A stretch of DNA of 64,000 nt from an uncultured virus (IMG/VR IMGVR_UViG_2912893941_000001) (Duplodnaviria > Heunggongvirae > Uroviricota > Caudoviricetes). The DNA lies in IMG/VR virus record IMGVR_UViG_2912893941_000001, positions 1 to 64,000 of that record; one strand, written 5' to 3'. Of this stretch, positions 10,479 through 43,288 are shown piece after piece. The position numbers and the translations under genes were made by a program. The notes below the pieces were generated by a model that was not told where the DNA came from, did no database searches, and saw nothing but the letters and a program-made list of their open reading frames with translations. The stretch's first letter is position 1; each line of letters starts with the position of its first letter.

Positions 10479-10718
10479 TTAACCCTCCGTGTTGCTGTCG
10501 GATACCTCAATCCATTCGTACAGATCTTCGGGCGCGCAACCGAGCATCATTGCGATATTGTAGGTTCGTTCGATGCTCGGCAGGTTCCGAAGCCTGACGT
10601 AATCGGACATTTGCGTTTTTGATACTCCGACCATTGCTGCGAGTTGACTGAGACTAATTCCGCGTTTTTTGCATAGTTCGGGTATCCGACATTTGCCGAC
10701 CTTAAACGTAATAAACAC
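10479..10718 (-). CDS. XRE-family HTH regulator (start may be ATT at 10712)
   Basis: ISLSQLAAMVGVSKTQMSDY HTH; PSIERTYNIAMMLG. Confidence 0.85.
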   Translation of the reverse strand: MFITFKVGKCRIPELCKKRGISLSQLAAMVGVSKTQMSDYVRLRNLPSIERTYNIAMMLGCAPEDLYEWIEVSDSNTEG

Positions 10719-10771
10719 CTCCGTACTACATCAGATAAGGTGTCACGGAGGAAATTATAGACTATTTCCGT

Positions 10772-10993
10772 TTAATTTTCCACATCGTCAGGTACAATTC
10801 GAACAACCTTCTCGATAGGAACCTCGAGAAATTGGCATATAACATCGATCGTACCTATGTACATAGTAGCGTTTTTAGTCATGTGCTGCTTCTTAATACT
10901 TGCCTGTGTGTCAGGAGAAATGCATTTTCTTAGGTGACTAGGCTTTAGTCCTCTTTCTTTTAAAGTCTGGTATAAGGGCGAAAAATCAACCAT
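10772..10993 (-). CDS. Cro/C1-type HTH_26 regulator
   Basis: FSPLYQTLKERG...IDVICQFLEVPIEKVV; AAAGGAG RBS; divergent from aimR. Confidence 0.82.
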   Translation of the reverse strand: MVDFSPLYQTLKERGLKPSHLRKCISPDTQASIKKQHMTKNATMYIGTIDVICQFLEVPIEKVVRIVPDDVEN

Positions 10994-11010
10994 TTTAAAT
11001 ACTCCTTTTA

Positions 11011-11069
11011 AAAAATGTCGGCACTACTGAACAAAAAATGTAGACACTGCTGAACATTTATCGTATGAT
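11011..11069 (+). promoter_or_regulatory. aimR promoter with a tandem 23-bp operator-like repeat
   Basis: TAGACA(11041)-N17-TATGAT(11064); repeats AAAAATGTCGGCACTACTGAACA and AAAAATGTAGACACTGCTGAACA. Confidence 0.65.
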
Positions 11070-11128
11070 TCAATTATACTCTAAATTGAAAATAATTCAA
11101 GAAACGGCAGAAAGGGGGCTCTCCAAAA

Positions 11129-12313
11129 TTGGAGGCGATAAGACGAGAACTTTGTGACTTCATCGAGGACCATGATATAAAGTATTCTCAGATAGCAAAA
11201 GAACTACGTGTTGATAAATCATCGATGACAAAATTTAAAAAAGATGGCACGATCGGCTTTAGGGCATTAGTAGTTATGGCGCACTTATTATTTCCAAAAG
11301 ATCCAGACAGTAAGATTTCGAGCTGGTGCATACAGTTAGACGATACCTCTAAAGAGATGGTTAAACAAGCATTTGAGTATGCTGCGATAACCAGAAACAC
11401 TAAGCTACTTGAACACTTAATTAATGAACATAAGGGGAAATCTCATCTAAAATCGTATGTTTCTATGTATCGTACTATATTAAATTATATGGATATGAAA
11501 ATATCGATTAAAGAGATGATTCAAGAAATGAACGAATTCAAGGCTTCAAAAGATAAAGAGCTTCACATACTAGCTGGAATTTACAAGTGTTATGGAAATT
11601 ACAGTTTGGGGGAGTACTTCCTCGTGATTTCTGAGGCGATGGAAATTGGAAGAAGCATAAATAAAATGAATGATAAAAGAGAGCTATTTATAAAGGAGTG
11701 TTATATTCATAGGTTTGCAGAAATGATAGCTCCCACATATCTCAAATTAAATAATCTTAAAGGGGCGGCACATTACGCGAATATCATACTACAAGCTAAT
11801 ATATCTCCAAAATTAAAAGCAGATGCCACCTATCTTCTAGGAATGACCAAATTACTTCATAATCCAGACGAGTCAATTAAATATTTTGAAAAAAGTTATT
11901 CTCTAATGCGACTAACTGGTGTAGATTATCTCATAAATGACTCTTATAATAACTTAGTAATGGCAAAAGCGTATCAGTATAGAAGTGATACACAAAAGTT
12001 AAGTAAATACCTTGAAACTTTAGAGGAGGTGGTTTATTTAGAAGAAGGAGACAGTTTTTATGAGTGCTTAAAGATCTATGAAAAAGGGGGTGTTGATAAT
12101 CTTCTTGAAGGCCATCGTAAATTCTTATATAAGTCAAACTTCTTTATTTCAGCGCTTATAGCTTCAGATCTACTCTCCACAGGCATACACCCTTATTTAT
12201 TAGAAACATTGAGTAGTTACAAACACAACAAAAAGGAGATGTTTTATTTTGAAGAAGATTTTATTGAGTGTTTTAGTGATCGCAGCGATTTTTTCAGCAG
12301 CCGGACAGCTTAA
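11129..12313 (+). CDS. aimR: AimR-family arbitrium peptide receptor (RRNPP: HTH plus TPR)
   Basis: N-terminal HTH, AFEYA motif, TPR-like helices, about 390 aa; directly followed by a secreted pro-peptide gene. Confidence 0.85.
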   Translation: MEAIRRELCDFIEDHDIKYSQIAKELRVDKSSMTKFKKDGTIGFRALVVMAHLLFPKDPDSKISSWCIQLDDTSKEMVKQAFEYAAITRNTKLLEHLINEHKGKSHLKSYVSMYRTILNYMDMKISIKEMIQEMNEFKASKDKELHILAGIYKCYGNYSLGEYFLVISEAMEIGRSINKMNDKRELFIKECYIHRFAEMIAPTYLKLNNLKGAAHYANIILQANISPKLKADATYLLGMTKLLHNPDESIKYFEKSYSLMRLTGVDYLINDSYNNLVMAKAYQYRSDTQKLSKYLETLEEVVYLEEGDSFYECLKIYEKGGVDNLLEGHRKFLYKSNFFISALIASDLLSTGIHPYLLETLSSYKHNKKEMFYFEEDFIECFSDRSDFFSSRTA

Positions 12314-12377
12314 AGGGTTTGAATACGCAAGCAGTGATAAGACCTTCGGAACAGCTGAACTTCGCCCCGGAGGTTGA
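12249..12377 (+). CDS. aimP: AimP arbitrium pro-peptide MKKILLSVLVIAAIFSAAGQLKGFEYASSDKTFGTAELRPGG; predicted mature peptide ELRPGG
   Basis: AAGGAG RBS, TTG start, Sec-type signal peptide, Ala before the C-terminal hexapeptide; overlaps the aimR 3' end; not in ORF track. Confidence 0.85.
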   Translation: MKKILLSVLVIAAIFSAAGQLKGFEYASSDKTFGTAELRPGG

Positions 12378-12387
12378 TAATACAAGC

Positions 12388-12413
12388 AGAGCCTTCGGGC
12401 TCTTTTCTTTTTG
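12388..12413 (+). terminator. Intrinsic terminator after aimP
   Basis: AGAGCC-TTCG-GGCTCT hairpin followed by TTTCTTTTT. Confidence 0.85.
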
Positions 12414-12532
12414 TCTATACAAGAAGTTGACTAAATTTCCATAATATAAATATCGCAACTTTCCGAAAAAACAAACGAATTTTTGGTACGATATGGTCAT
12501 AGAAGAAATTAATAAAAAGTTTTTAAAAAGAA

Positions 12533-12572
12533 ATGTCGCAAAATCATTTACTGCCTACCCGTTATATAAGTG
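12533..12572 (+). promoter_or_regulatory. Phage-specific promoter-like motif, copy 2
   Basis: ATGTCGCAAAA-N10-CCTACCCGTTATATAAGTG just upstream of the RBS of the sigma-like gene. Confidence 0.75.
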
Positions 12573-12594
12573 TAAGGCGAAAGGAGATATCAAA

Positions 12595-13122
12595 TTGGAA
12601 CAAAAACAATTTAATAGACTTCAGTTAGCAGCCGACAGTGGTGCGATTCCCTACGTAACTAAGGAAGCGGAACGAATCGCCCATCTAATTCCGGATTTTA
12701 CCTCCTTTGAGCAGGAGTGCTATCAAGCGATCGGAAGGACGTTAGAAAATCTTGCGGAAAATGGACGCGAAAAAAAGGCGTTGATACAGCGCATTATTCG
12801 CGAAACCCGGCATAGATTTGTGAAGAATAGACGATCTAGGGACGAAATCGCAATCGAAGCAATTAACGAAGAAGGAACCGTTTGGGAGCCGGAAGACACT
12901 TTGGCGAGTGTTGAGGACGCGGTTTTGCTTAAAGAAAAAGTCGCCCTGTTGGCGCAGGACGACGAAAGAAAAAAACTTATTCTCGATACTTGGACTCGCG
13001 GATGTACAAACGATACGGAAGTTTCCACGTTGTTGGCGCAACGTTTTGGAGGAAATGCTCCGTCCCATCGAAAGTTTATCCAACGATTCCGATCAAACTG
13101 TCAACGCGAATTAACAGCTTAA
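12595..13122 (+). CDS. Putative phage sigma-70/ECF-like transcription factor
   Basis: AAGGAG RBS then TTG at 12595; region-2-like RIIRETRHRFVKNRR, acidic linker, region-4-like C-terminal HTH. Confidence 0.6.
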   Translation: MEQKQFNRLQLAADSGAIPYVTKEAERIAHLIPDFTSFEQECYQAIGRTLENLAENGREKKALIQRIIRETRHRFVKNRRSRDEIAIEAINEEGTVWEPEDTLASVEDAVLLKEKVALLAQDDERKKLILDTWTRGCTNDTEVSTLLAQRFGGNAPSHRKFIQRFRSNCQRELTA

Positions 13123-33177: not shown

Positions 33178-33978
33178 ATGAAGAGATTACGAGTTATTAA
33201 TACGGAGACAGGCGAAGACTGGTCGGAAATGTACACGCTGCGGCACCGCAACCAAGACGCAGCCTTTCGTCAGCAGCAAGAAAAAACAGCCGATCGGCGC
33301 GATTTCTCAAACGCCAATATGTCTAATATTCACGAAGTCTATGACGCTCTTACGACGGCACAGTGTGGCTATCTGATGCTGCTTCAGTGCTACGTCGACT
33401 ACAACGGTGTTCTAATAAAATCCAGCCGTAATAAAACGCCGATGACCACCGCGGACATGATGGACGTTTTGCAGCTCAGTAAAAAACGGATGACCTTTTA
33501 CGACTTCCTTTCCGCCTGTACCGAGCACGACATCATCCGGGAAGAGAACGGCCGCTACAGTGTAAATGACCGCTACCACTTCAAAGGTAATTTCGGTAGT
33601 CAGCAAGTCGTTAAGCTATACAGCGCGAAGATCAAACGTGTGTACAGCGAAGTGAAGGCGACTGACATCGGTCTGATCTATCGTATGCTGCCGTTCATTC
33701 ATTACGAAACAAACGCTCTGTGCGCAAATCCTTTCGAAAAGAATCCGAAGCGCATACGTTGGTTTAACAAAAAAGAGCTTGCGGCGGCGATCGGTGTTAC
33801 CTCGGATACGCTCGGCCGGCGCCTGAAGCAGATGAAATTCGACGGCGAATACGTTGTTGCGCGAATTAAAGTCGGAAGCGAGCCGGAGCGCTATACGTTT
33901 AATCCTAACGTATTCTATCGACAATCCAAGACGCCGGACAAAACGCTGATTGCGCTGTTTAACGTTAAGAAGGTATAA
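33178..33978 (+). CDS. Tandem winged-helix protein, RepL-like
   Basis: Two wHTH-like units ending YSVNDRY and YTFNPNVFY; AAAGGAG RBS. Confidence 0.6.
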   Translation: MKRLRVINTETGEDWSEMYTLRHRNQDAAFRQQQEKTADRRDFSNANMSNIHEVYDALTTAQCGYLMLLQCYVDYNGVLIKSSRNKTPMTTADMMDVLQLSKKRMTFYDFLSACTEHDIIREENGRYSVNDRYHFKGNFGSQQVVKLYSAKIKRVYSEVKATDIGLIYRMLPFIHYETNALCANPFEKNPKRIRWFNKKELAAAIGVTSDTLGRRLKQMKFDGEYVVARIKVGSEPERYTFNPNVFYRQSKTPDKTLIALFNVKKV

Positions 33979-33998
33979 TTTTACTATACCGGAGGTGA
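33950..33998 (+). promoter_or_regulatory. SigA-like promoter and RBS of the mini-ORF
   Basis: TTGCGC(33950)-N18-TATAAT(33974); GGAGGTGA at 33991. Confidence 0.6.
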
Positions 33999-34003
33999 GG
34001 CGA

Positions 34004-34087
34004 ATGGGAATGCCACGAGGAGCTAATCCGTTAGAGAGTGCGATTAGAGGCGCAGGTCCAGCGGAAAGCGCATCACGCGGAGCATAA
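34004..34087 (+). CDS. Tandem arbitrium-peptide mini-protein M-GMPRGA-NPLE-SAIRGA-GPAE-SASRGA (27 aa, no signal peptide)
   Basis: Strong RBS; three xxxRGA hexapeptides at a 10-codon period with differing synonymous codons; terminator follows. Confidence 0.85.
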   Translation: MGMPRGANPLESAIRGAGPAESASRGA

Positions 34088-40698: not shown

Positions 40699-40913
40699 CA
40701 AATAAGCAAATGGAATCCCACTGTGCCCCATCCAATTGTTCACGCCATTTCGAAGTTTGCGAATGCAAGTCGATGTGTCTGCTGCGGTATGGAGCCGAAA
40801 TACGGAAGCGGCAGGAAGAAGTCGGAGCTGCAGTCGGCATATACGAAAAAAGACGAGCACACCTACGTTGGCTGCGGCTCAAACGTTGGGGCGCCCGTCG
40901 TCTTATAGATTAA
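40695..40913 (+). CDS. Small Cys-rich hypothetical protein
   Basis: GGAGG RBS before ATG at 40695. Confidence 0.5.
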   Translation: MTNKQMESHCAPSNCSRHFEVCECKSMCLLRYGAEIRKRQEEVGAAVGIYEKRRAHLRWLRLKRWGARRLID

Positions 40914-41451
40914 CATTCGCGTATACTTCGTCGATCCGGTCCTGATTGATTCCGATATATCTCAACGTGACCGACTGCTTCGAGTGGTTGAAAATCGATT
41001 GAAGTAGCGTAAGATCTGTGCCGTTCTTGTACGCGTGGTAGCCGAAAGTCTTACGCAACGAATGGCAGCCGATTGTGCCGAGCTTCTCTGAAAGGCCTGC
41101 GCGCTCAATAGCTTCGTTAAGAATCCCGTAAGCACGGACGCGGGTAATAGCTTTCGAACCTTTCCGAGAAGGGAAAAGCCAGTCGTCGTCGTTTGCTTCG
41201 GCCGGAATCAGGTCAGCAACGGCTTTCTTGATTGCGGCATTGAAGAAGAAACGTTTTGACTTCTTCGTTTTCCCTTCCGTAATCGCAACGAAGTCCTTTC
41301 CGCGCACATCACCGACTTTGAGTGCGAGTATATCGGAAATACGTAGGCCGGAATTAATGCCGAGCGTAAATAAAAGCAGATCACGCCCGCGAAGGGCTTT
41401 TTTTATTGCGTTTATTTGGCGTTTTTCTCTAATCGGTTGGACTTCGTTCAT
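40903..41451 (-). CDS. Small tyrosine recombinase (catalytic domain only)
   Basis: SGLRISD, HSLRKTFG and FNHS...TLRYIG motifs. Confidence 0.9.
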   Translation of the reverse strand: MNEVQPIREKRQINAIKKALRGRDLLLFTLGINSGLRISDILALKVGDVRGKDFVAITEGKTKKSKRFFFNAAIKKAVADLIPAEANDDDWLFPSRKGSKAITRVRAYGILNEAIERAGLSEKLGTIGCHSLRKTFGYHAYKNGTDLTLLQSIFNHSKQSVTLRYIGINQDRIDEVYANVNL

Positions 41452-41533
41452 GCGAACTTCACTCCGTTCTCAATATGTTAAATTCATATTAACGAAATTA
41501 AAAACGAAAGTCAAGCGAAAGGAGGGCGATAAT

Positions 41534-43288
41534 TTGGCGTATATTAACGGGAAATGGTTGGATCGTGAAGAGCGGCAAGAACGTATCGACTTATTGATCG
41601 AGAGTGTGCGTCGATTAGCGGCCCTCATTAAAGCGAAAAAAGCCACCGATTACCATATCGATATGTTCCGGAAGAACAAGGCCGAATTAATTAAGCTGAA
41701 GCGTGTTCATCGTGCCGAGGTGGATATCGCATATTTCACCTACGAGTATTTGAGCGACGGCCTAAATCCGGAAAACGAGGATAATGTCGTAAGGAACTCG
41801 GATGACGGGACGCCTCACGATGGCATTGAAGATATCGCAAAGATACACGAAGAGTTTTTCGAGCTTTGCGATTACGTCAACGAAGAGAAAAGGAACGCGC
41901 GGCTTGCAATCGCGGCTGCTCGGGGCCACTCGAAATCCGGTATGTTTTCGAACGCCTTGCCGTTACATCAGGCGGCTTACAGAAAACGCAAATATATTCT
42001 TGTCATATCAGAGACGGATTCGCTCTCGAAAAAGCTTATCGGATGGGTTAACAAGCAGATGAAGTTTAACGCTAAACTGCGGGAAGACTTCGGCCCTATG
42101 ATGCACGAGTCGGCGAGCCGCAACGAAAAGGATAACGAAGAGGCGTTCATTACCACGACGAATATCCTTATCGAGTCGTCATCTTCCGGTAAGCAGCTTC
42201 GCGGTAAGCGTCACGGAGCTGTCCGGCCGGATCTCGTAATAATTGACGACCCGTCATCGACAAACAACGAAGGAACCAAGGAAGCACGTGAAAAGCTCGT
42301 TCATTGGTTTAACTCGGTCGTTGTTCCGATCGGGTCTAAGGCGACGGCAATCGTGTTAGTCGGGACAATGGTTTCGGCGACCGGGCTTCTTAACCACGTT
42401 CTGAAGCGTAAGGATTTCAAGGCGAGCTTTCACGGAGCGATCATAAGCGAGCCAACACACCCGGAATTATGGGACAAATACTGCGAGGTCTATGCGAGAG
42501 CAGAAACGATCGAAGAGGCTGACGAATTTTACGAAGCGCATAAAGAGGCGTTGGAGGACGGCGTCGAACTGGCGTGGCCTTGGCGCTGGACCTATCGCGA
42601 GCTTATGCACGAAAAAGTAAACATGGGAACGCGTGCATACAATTCGGAATTCCGAAACTTGGCTTTCAGTGAAGACGAGCAGTTCTTTTTCCCGGAGAAT
42701 TACGCTTATTACCACTACTACCACGAGAACGGAACTGCCCATGTCGTATATAACGAATTGAAAATACCGATCAGCGATCTTTTGATCGTCGGTGCGTGGG
42801 ATATCGCGCAAGGAAAAAATGCGCGGTCCTGCTATAACTCGGTTATTACCCTCGGTAAACACGAGCCGACCGGCTATATTTTCGTACTGGACGAATACGC
42901 GTCGAAGGAACCGGCGCACGTATACATTGACGTCATTATTCGGAAGATCAAACAATACCGGCATCGTTCCTTCAACGTCGAAACAATAAACGCGCAGCAC
43001 GAATACTATCGTCAGCTTCAGGAGCGGGTCCGGCAGGAAGGTCTTTATACGTGCCGCGTGAACGATGTGAAATCGCATAAGTCTTCGAAAGACGAGCGTA
43101 TTCAGTCGATGGAACCGATGCTGCATAACAAAACGCTGATTCTGAACGATAGGCACACGATGCTGCTCGATCAGATGGCGCAGTATCCTTTCGGCGATTA
43201 CGTTGATTCACTCGACGCGCTTCAGCAGGCGCTCGAATCCGTATTCAGGCCGAAAACAAGGCTGGTGAAGAAGCCGGGATGGCTATAA
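41534..43288 (+). CDS. terL: Terminase large subunit
   Basis: ARGHSKS (Walker A), RPDLVIIDD (Walker B), C-terminal nuclease (WDIA, DSLDA); RBS at 41521. Confidence 0.92.
   Translation: MAYINGKWLDREERQERIDLLIESVRRLAALIKAKKATDYHIDMFRKNKAELIKLKRVHRAEVDIAYFTYEYLSDGLNPENEDNVVRNSDDGTPHDGIEDIAKIHEEFFELCDYVNEEKRNARLAIAAARGHSKSGMFSNALPLHQAAYRKRKYILVISETDSLSKKLIGWVNKQMKFNAKLREDFGPMMHESASRNEKDNEEAFITTTNILIESSSSGKQLRGKRHGAVRPDLVIIDDPSSTNNEGTKEAREKLVHWFNSVVVPIGSKATAIVLVGTMVSATGLLNHVLKRKDFKASFHGAIISEPTHPELWDKYCEVYARAETIEEADEFYEAHKEALEDGVELAWPWRWTYRELMHEKVNMGTRAYNSEFRNLAFSEDEQFFFPENYAYYHYYHENGTAHVVYNELKIPISDLLIVGAWDIAQGKNARSCYNSVITLGKHEPTGYIFVLDEYASKEPAHVYIDVIIRKIKQYRHRSFNVETINAQHEYYRQLQERVRQEGLYTCRVNDVKSHKSSKDERIQSMEPMLHNKTLILNDRHTMLLDQMAQYPFGDYVDSLDALQQALESVFRPKTRLVKKPGWL

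Follow-up and report, generated by a model that had tools for sequence, protein, structure and literature searches.

A temperate phage of Bacillus, with 268TH007, 268TH002 and phi18-2 among its relatives, carries, in 84 bases, a leaderless gene whose predicted product is a Met followed by three arbitrium signal hexamers of other phages, joined by two tetrapeptide linkers. Sequence comparison with related phages shows that this cassette is a conserved module that looks translated, its ORF being preceded by a promoter-like box and a ribosome site and followed by a terminator. Kin either have the module or lack it cleanly; where it is present, it carries two to four foreign hexamers, and the carrier's own signal is never among them. 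In the explanation that we favour, with a probability of about 0.55, the cassette would be a leaderless polyprotein of forged signals that is matured by cytoplasmic peptidases of the host and silences the AimR receptors of rival phages.

The cassette and its surroundings

The stretch of DNA analysed, hereafter the window, comprises 64,000 nucleotides and spans nearly all of a 64,318-base virus record. The features around the cassette are these:

33178..33978, + strand: upstream gene, phrog_9501, annotated as a DNA-binding protein in phages 268TH007 and 268TH002
33950-33955, + strand: weak -35-like TTGCGC, with an 18-nt spacer to TATAAT
33974..33979, + strand: perfect -10-like TATAAT, putative own promoter, overlapping the upstream stop codon
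33991..33998, + strand: Shine-Dalgarno sequence GGAGGTGA, upstream of all 26 loci compared
34004..34087, + strand: leaderless ORF of 27 codons, Met plus three arbitrium hexamers and two tetrapeptide linkers (translation; 16 distinct homologous cassettes; pN/pS 0.14-0.21)
34007..34024, + strand: unit 1, GMPRGA, the SPbeta signal (translation; PMC13220667)
34025..34036, + strand: linker 1, NPLE; in kin SPLE, SSLE, GPQLY, FPQRY, KELPKPKY or NPLESA
34037..34054, + strand: unit 2, SAIRGA, the phi3T signal (translation; PMC13220667)
34055..34066, + strand: linker 2, GPAE; GPTE in one relative, missing from 6 of 16 cassettes, where a unit with X-Pro then adjoins
34067..34084, + strand: unit 3, SASRGA, with a free C-terminus; cognate of 14.9% of 281 clade-2 receptors (PMC13220667)
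34089..34125, no strand given: intrinsic terminator hairpin, A-tract before and T-tract after (z -5.1; minus strand only in one scan)

A preliminary description had placed unit 1 directly after the initiator Met and unit 3 up to the stop codon, with an x-P-x-E pattern in both linkers, and translation confirms this arrangement: Met, GMPRGA, NPLE, SAIRGA, GPAE, SASRGA, TAA. The longest hydrophobic run in the product is 2 residues, which leaves it without a signal peptide, and such runs reach at most 1-2 residues in all 16 cassettes, none of which has the N-terminal secretion leader typical of AimP. A longer start at TTG 33950 (45 aa) was considered and rejected; it would overlap the upstream gene without gaining a hydrophobic leader. 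In a six-frame translation of the window, three RGA motifs fall inside 25 residues once, and of 100 triplet shuffles of its full length, 1 has such a cluster; this control scored RGA only and not the exact hexamers. Variation in the units is synonymous in character: the pN/pS ratio, calculated from related, non-independent pairs, is 0.14 for 5 sequences compared over their last 20 codons and 0.21 for 7 sequences compared over the 16 codons that follow Met. Searches of PDB, Pfam and PHROGs returned no match to the peptide, and 4 of the 5 cassettes checked are missing from a collection of 15 billion proteins; a function encoded in 84 bases falls below the size that gene callers report.

The -10-like box occupies this site in 22 of 22 cassette loci versus 1 of 27 cassette-less kin, and the extended form TGnTATAAT is found in four loci whose upstream gene differs; a consensus promoter scan of the window did not list the box at 33974-33979. 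The terminator hairpin, which is probably bidirectional, is also present in cassette-less kin. Four carriers have a different sequence upstream of the cassette, with an unrelated gene of 141-142 codons in the three examined, and this replacement indicates that no neighbouring gene travels with the cassette, which in the window closes a rightward, lytic-looking run of genes.

Searches by neighbouring gene and by flanking pattern yielded 16 distinct cassettes that begin with Met-Gly, measure 17-39 residues and hold 2-4 units each. These counts exclude a 17th variant with the GPTE linker (P0003) and two loci, L003 and L049, which have no Met-Gly start and one ELKPGG-like unit each. The latter are divergent single-unit variants at the same site (L003 3827-3874, L049 3826-3885) that start with Met-Ile-Lys, one of them with a C-terminal tail, and another locus (L048) retains just the start of the leader. 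Among 51 loci with a close and complete upstream gene, which are related and not de-duplicated, 22 have the cassette, 27 lack it and 2 are too short to score. The upstream stop leads directly into the terminator in L001 and L045, so that the module is cleanly absent there. Among the cassettes, the order and number of units differ through apparent deletions. The pattern xPxE-RGA-stop gave 9 matches in IMG/VR, each on a contig already known to carry a cassette; none of the 94 stretches from a metagenome pattern scan was a cassette, and matches in GenBank phages and plasmids were confined to the terminator region. As regards a recent capture of DNA from natural aimP genes, comparison with those seen reveals a different Ser codon family in SASRGA, a different Arg codon in SAIRGA and close codons in GMPRGA. 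A smaller arrangement occurs in 12 viral contigs of 61-173 kb (L308-L319), where seven-codon minigenes, Met-SIGHGA-stop, are accompanied by a ribosome-site-like sequence, with an in-frame stop just upstream in 8 of the 12.

Resident and foreign signals

The phage has an arbitrium switch of its own:

11129..12313, + strand: the phage's own aimR (Pfam AimR, E 1.8e-20)
12249..12377, + strand: the phage's own aimP, with a hydrophobic leader and the end Thr-Ala-ELRPGG; ELRPGG is missing from the cassette

This AimR is the only one among the 107 ORFs of the window and lies, with its own aimP, about 22 kb from the cassette, which does not stand directly downstream of a cognate aimR as an aimP does. 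In a tree of 34 AimRs, where a receptor 98% identical (L190) stood in for that of the window, those of this phage family fall into one clade (100/99), separate from the RGA-type receptors. The switch region (10482-13122) comprises two small HTH genes upstream of and divergent from aimR, an aimP that overlaps the end of aimR, and a downstream gene of 209 aa in place of an antisense aimC, a layout that differs from the ‘extended’ one of bioRxiv 10.1101/2025.11.23.689978. Closely similar phages (L190-L210) bear differing aimR/aimP pairs, with receptors about 30-35% identical and the signals ELRPGG, DIRVGA, EIKVGG, INAIGG and ANQLGG, from which it follows that exchange of the arbitrium module does not depend on the cassette. 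Elsewhere in the window, two tandem PD-(D/E)XK endonuclease genes come immediately after the integrase (1147-2045), and a second integrase-family ORF (40903-41451, - strand) overlaps a 686-codon frame (41228-43288, + strand) at its start; that frame has no Pfam match and lies where a large terminase would be expected.

The three units of the window cassette all appear in a published list of clade-2 signals (Table S2 of PMC13220667), and according to this source GMPRGA and SAIRGA are cognate to 11.4% and 6.8% of the 281 clade-2 receptors, which together with SASRGA amounts to 33%. Across the family, 35 of 46 units match a listed clade-2 signal exactly, namely 8 of 16 first units, 14 of 14 internal units and 13 of 16 last units. 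The remaining 8 first units are of the type Glu-x-x-Pro/Leu-Gly-Ala/Gly and resemble natural signals from the receptor clade to which the carriers themselves belong (EIKPGG, EISPGA, GLNPGA, ELRPGG, DIRPGG); judging from this likeness, they are probably aimed at sibling phages.

In none of 16 testable carriers does the cassette contain the carrier's own signal. Those carriers are the window, 13 of 23 carriers searched for aimR, G037 and G042, the other 10 having no aimR match. Two of these ten (G016 and G017; L025, L030) are complete records with a GFTVGA/GFPRGA cassette and no match to the window's AimR, and they may have either no arbitrium system or a distantly related one. Cassette and receptor can also be combined differently, as the window and G001 have identical cassette DNA and AimRs just 34% identical. 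Two carriers whose own signal is ELRPGG hold the similar unit EIKPGA.

Records that bear the names B. paralicheniformis and B. glycinifermentans (L002, L009) contain the GFTVGA/GFPRGA cassette, and PMC13220667 assigns GFPRGA (all 5 rows) and GFTVGA (first 10 rows, sheet 1) to the licheniformis group. One record (G042) combines this cassette with a matching resident GFPRGA system; another (G037) has a resident GFGRGA system that its cassette does not match. GFGRGA is the commonest clade-2 signal (19.9% in PMC13220667) and accounts for 0 of the 46 units. This absence and the mismatch in G037 argue against a simple tracking of rivals by cassette content. Separately, clade-2 aimR frames of 324 and 262 residues stand beside intact GFGRGA aimP genes in L271 and L272; these receptors are possibly broken, and the L272 region includes an upstream fragment with a stop.

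Predicted release of the units

Met aminopeptidase cleaves before Gly and not before Glu. All 16 cassettes begin with Met-Gly, and the 8 with a Glu-starting first unit add an extra Gly, which supports the earlier proposal that unit 1 loses its Met; its N-terminus is likely freed in this way. The extra Gly would leave a 7-mer after Met removal, and it need not serve the aminopeptidase, since in L003 and L049 a Gly precedes the Glu-type unit away from Met. At the opposite end, every one of the 16 cassettes finishes on a unit.

Published structural work indicates that AimR anchors both ends of its ligand, with Q299/E300 binding the N-terminal amine and R228 the carboxylate (PMC6458997), and that the C-terminal Ala points toward the interior of the pocket while the N-terminal Gly is at the entry (PMC6340889). 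As the peptide C-terminus is buried, internal units would most likely have to be excised from the chain, and unit 2 would need cleavage at both its sides. The need for cutting, which the preliminary description had also put forward, is further supported by the exactness of the internal units (14/14) versus the terminal ones (13/16). For Rap-Phr pairs, extended peptides are reported to bind poorly before cleavage (PMC11343458).

The x-P-x-E pattern is true of both window linkers and is the most frequent one in the family, yet no general rule there: it holds for 18 of 30 junctions, the exceptions including 6 junctions without spacer, 4 ending in Tyr and one lacking Pro (SSLE). Pro occupies the second position after the unit in 28 of the 30 junctions, which share ancestry and are not independent, and at all 6 spacer-less junctions the next unit has Pro at position 2; there, the X-Pro may have been left behind by deletions inside GPAE-SASRGA. 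Of 24 spacers, 23 end in Glu or Tyr, and the residue preceding an internal or last unit is Glu in 19, Ala in 7 and Tyr in 4 of the 30 cases, versus Ala 23, Lys 6, Ser 4 and Thr 1 among 34 natural secreted AimP ends, with no Glu or Tyr; this difference suggests that the cassette follows a different route from secreted AimP. A fixed dipeptide trimming of linkers is contradicted by linkers of 5 residues (3 of 24 spacers), and the resemblance to motifs for ribosome arrest, 2A-like skipping or double-glycine export is partial and variable among cassettes.

That no dedicated protease lies nearby is borne out at the Pfam level: among the 107 ORFs of the window, of which 57 matched no family, no processing protease was recognised, and peptidase-named domains occur in two tail proteins only. 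Glu and Tyr at a cut site suit the extracellular enzymes Mpr, which is Glu-specific, and subtilisin. For the cut before X-Pro, the candidate is presumably an oligopeptidase of the PepF/Pz-peptidase kind. The literature searched, including passages of PMC7480361 and PMC13284217, offered no source for PepF/Pz-peptidase cleavage at such a position.

Competing explanations and relation to known systems

According to the explanation that we favour, the chain would be a cytoplasmic product, its gene probably having a promoter of its own. The first N-terminus would be exposed by the deformylase and Met aminopeptidase of the host, and host cytoplasmic peptidases would cleave behind the last residue of each unit, usually before X-Pro, and also behind the final Glu or Tyr of a spacer. 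The free hexamers would bind the AimR of SPbeta-type phages that enter the cell or already reside in it, and the units of kin that start with Glu would bind the receptors of sibling phages; this binding would shut aimX, the rival would be forced into or kept in lysogeny, and the carrier would thus retain its host or win the cell during induction. We favour an intracellular route because of the missing leader, the invariant Met-Gly, the -10-like box and the one-unit Met-SIGHGA minigenes, which would need Met removal only, and because the secreted maturation site is not copied, Glu/Tyr replacing the natural Ala before the units. Against this route, cytoplasmic peptidases may destroy the hexamers as quickly as they are produced, and the weak -35, together with the overlap between the -10 box and a stop codon, speaks against a promoter of its own.

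Several published observations concern the later steps. Free hexamers bind AimR and lower aimX expression (bioRxiv 10.1101/2025.10.13.681967; PMC6458997; PMC13220667), and the first of these sources describes that systems of clades 1, 2 and 3 share B. subtilis genomes, that phi3T responds to SASRGA too, and that a foreign signal makes the receiver lysogenise early, to the benefit of the emitting prophage. In PMC13220667, phi3T induction in the presence of non-cognate peptides showed no tenfold drop. The fuller proposition seems to us an even bet: an exchangeable cassette of this phage family that forges multiple signals in one leaderless polyprotein, is cut inside the cell before X-Pro and after Glu/Tyr by a host peptidase route not yet known for signal peptides, silences two to four different rival receptors simultaneously, those of siblings included, and has its content tuned to the rivals of the host group.

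The main alternative, already raised in the preliminary description, is that the chain accumulates and lysis releases it uncut, after which secreted or wall proteases (Mpr, subtilisin-type, WprA) would cut it for import into neighbouring cells via Opp as a false high-density signal. The spacer ends, which suit Mpr and subtilisin in 23 of 24 cases, are consistent with such a broadcast, as is the location of the cassette at the end of a lytic-looking gene run. There is also a precedent, since extracellular WprA, Bpr and NprE free internal pheromones from tandem Phr propeptides, one of which has a 4-residue spacer (PMC11343458). However, a leader would permit broadcast without lysis, and the phages' own aimP has one; a natural secreted tandem AimP (L294) has an Ala-ending spacer; dense cultures degrade extracellular signal (PMC8612742); and the invariant Met-Gly start, together with the one-unit minigenes, indicates cytoplasmic maturation. 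A broadcast after lysis is possible, though less likely than cutting inside the cell, since a secreted design exists and yet is unused here.

The chain could also stay uncut, with the last unit alone entering AimR, the rest trailing from the pocket entrance and the upstream units kept as spares or as a store for recombination. Published structures would allow this for the last unit, given that the N-terminal residue of the peptide is located at the pocket entry and that losing a single contact (e.g., E300A) weakens binding from 40 nM to 0.14-6.7 uM without abolishing it (PMC6340889); the varying order and number of units and the failure to find a protease in the window point the same way. The suggestion that the uncut chain binds AimR directly could apply to the last unit only, yet the internal ones are the more exact signals (14/14 versus 13/16). 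The pN/pS of 0.21 across the first 16 codons after Met, and the 10 occurrences of GMPRGA in 16 cassettes, never as the last unit, likewise speak against mere spares, and we hold this alternative to be improbable. Even less credit can be given to the idea that the peptides target the host or the carrier's own circuit (colony development, sporulation or cross-talk to its own AimR) instead of rival phages. SAIRGA and GMPRGA do change colony development without AimR at 20 uM (bioRxiv 10.64898/2026.08.23.746533), and the EIKPGA unit in the two ELRPGG carriers would fit a cross-talk of this sort, but an effect on the host would not call for several exact and differing signals, none of the 16 cassettes contains the own signal, and carriers of the licheniformis group hold GFTVGA and GFPRGA, the signals of that group in the rows of PMC13220667 cited above.

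Searches of the open full-text arbitrium literature returned no description of a leaderless multi-signal gene. Text searches within the two cross-talk papers (PMC13220667; bioRxiv 10.1101/2025.10.13.681967) found nothing on tandem, mimic, orphan or concatemer peptides, and within a 2026 review (PMC13389391) nothing on mimicry, jamming or cheating. We regard the design of the cassette as new in kind because it departs from the features that define AimP and tandem Phr pro-peptides; its function we infer, and by analogy it would work like AimP. The ligands and receptors were already known, and what would be new is the design of the gene and its presumed role. Published manipulation between phages through arbitrium rests on the chance cross-talk of an own secreted signal. 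If our explanation were true, a gene of solely foreign signals would provide direct evidence that deception has evolved, and of the arms race already proposed to explain signal diversity, and a defence or competition function would be packed into 84 bases. The cassette also offers a way to ask whether several stable signals can be processed from one peptide polyprotein in the cytoplasm of a bacterium.

Regarding known systems, the cassette shares with the clade-2 AimP of SPbeta, phi3T and Goe11 the same mature hexamers (GMPRGA, SAIRGA and SASRGA) and a C-terminal hexamer, SASRGA, that ends at the stop and matches a known signal. Unlike these AimP, it has neither a leader nor an adjoining aimR, its several units are different from each other and none is cognate to the carrier, and Glu/Tyr instead of Ala precedes the units. 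The tandem Phr pro-peptides of phi3T and phi105 (PMC11343458) and the secreted AimP of L294 (minus strand from 1157), with two EIKPGG copies and an Ala-ending tetrapeptide spacer between them, resemble the cassette in having several units per precursor, as all 16 cassettes do with 2-4 units, and in that internal units must be cut at both sides; in contrast with the cassette, they are secreted, serve the receptor beside which they are encoded, and mature extracellularly by cleavage at Ala-ending spacers. The closest likeness in effect would be the cross-talk described for arbitrium phages (PMC13220667; bioRxiv 10.1101/2025.10.13.681967), where the peptide of one phage pushes another into lysogeny to the emitter's benefit. 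There, however, an own secreted AimP happens to fit another receptor, whereas here a separate gene appears to be dedicated to the signals of others.
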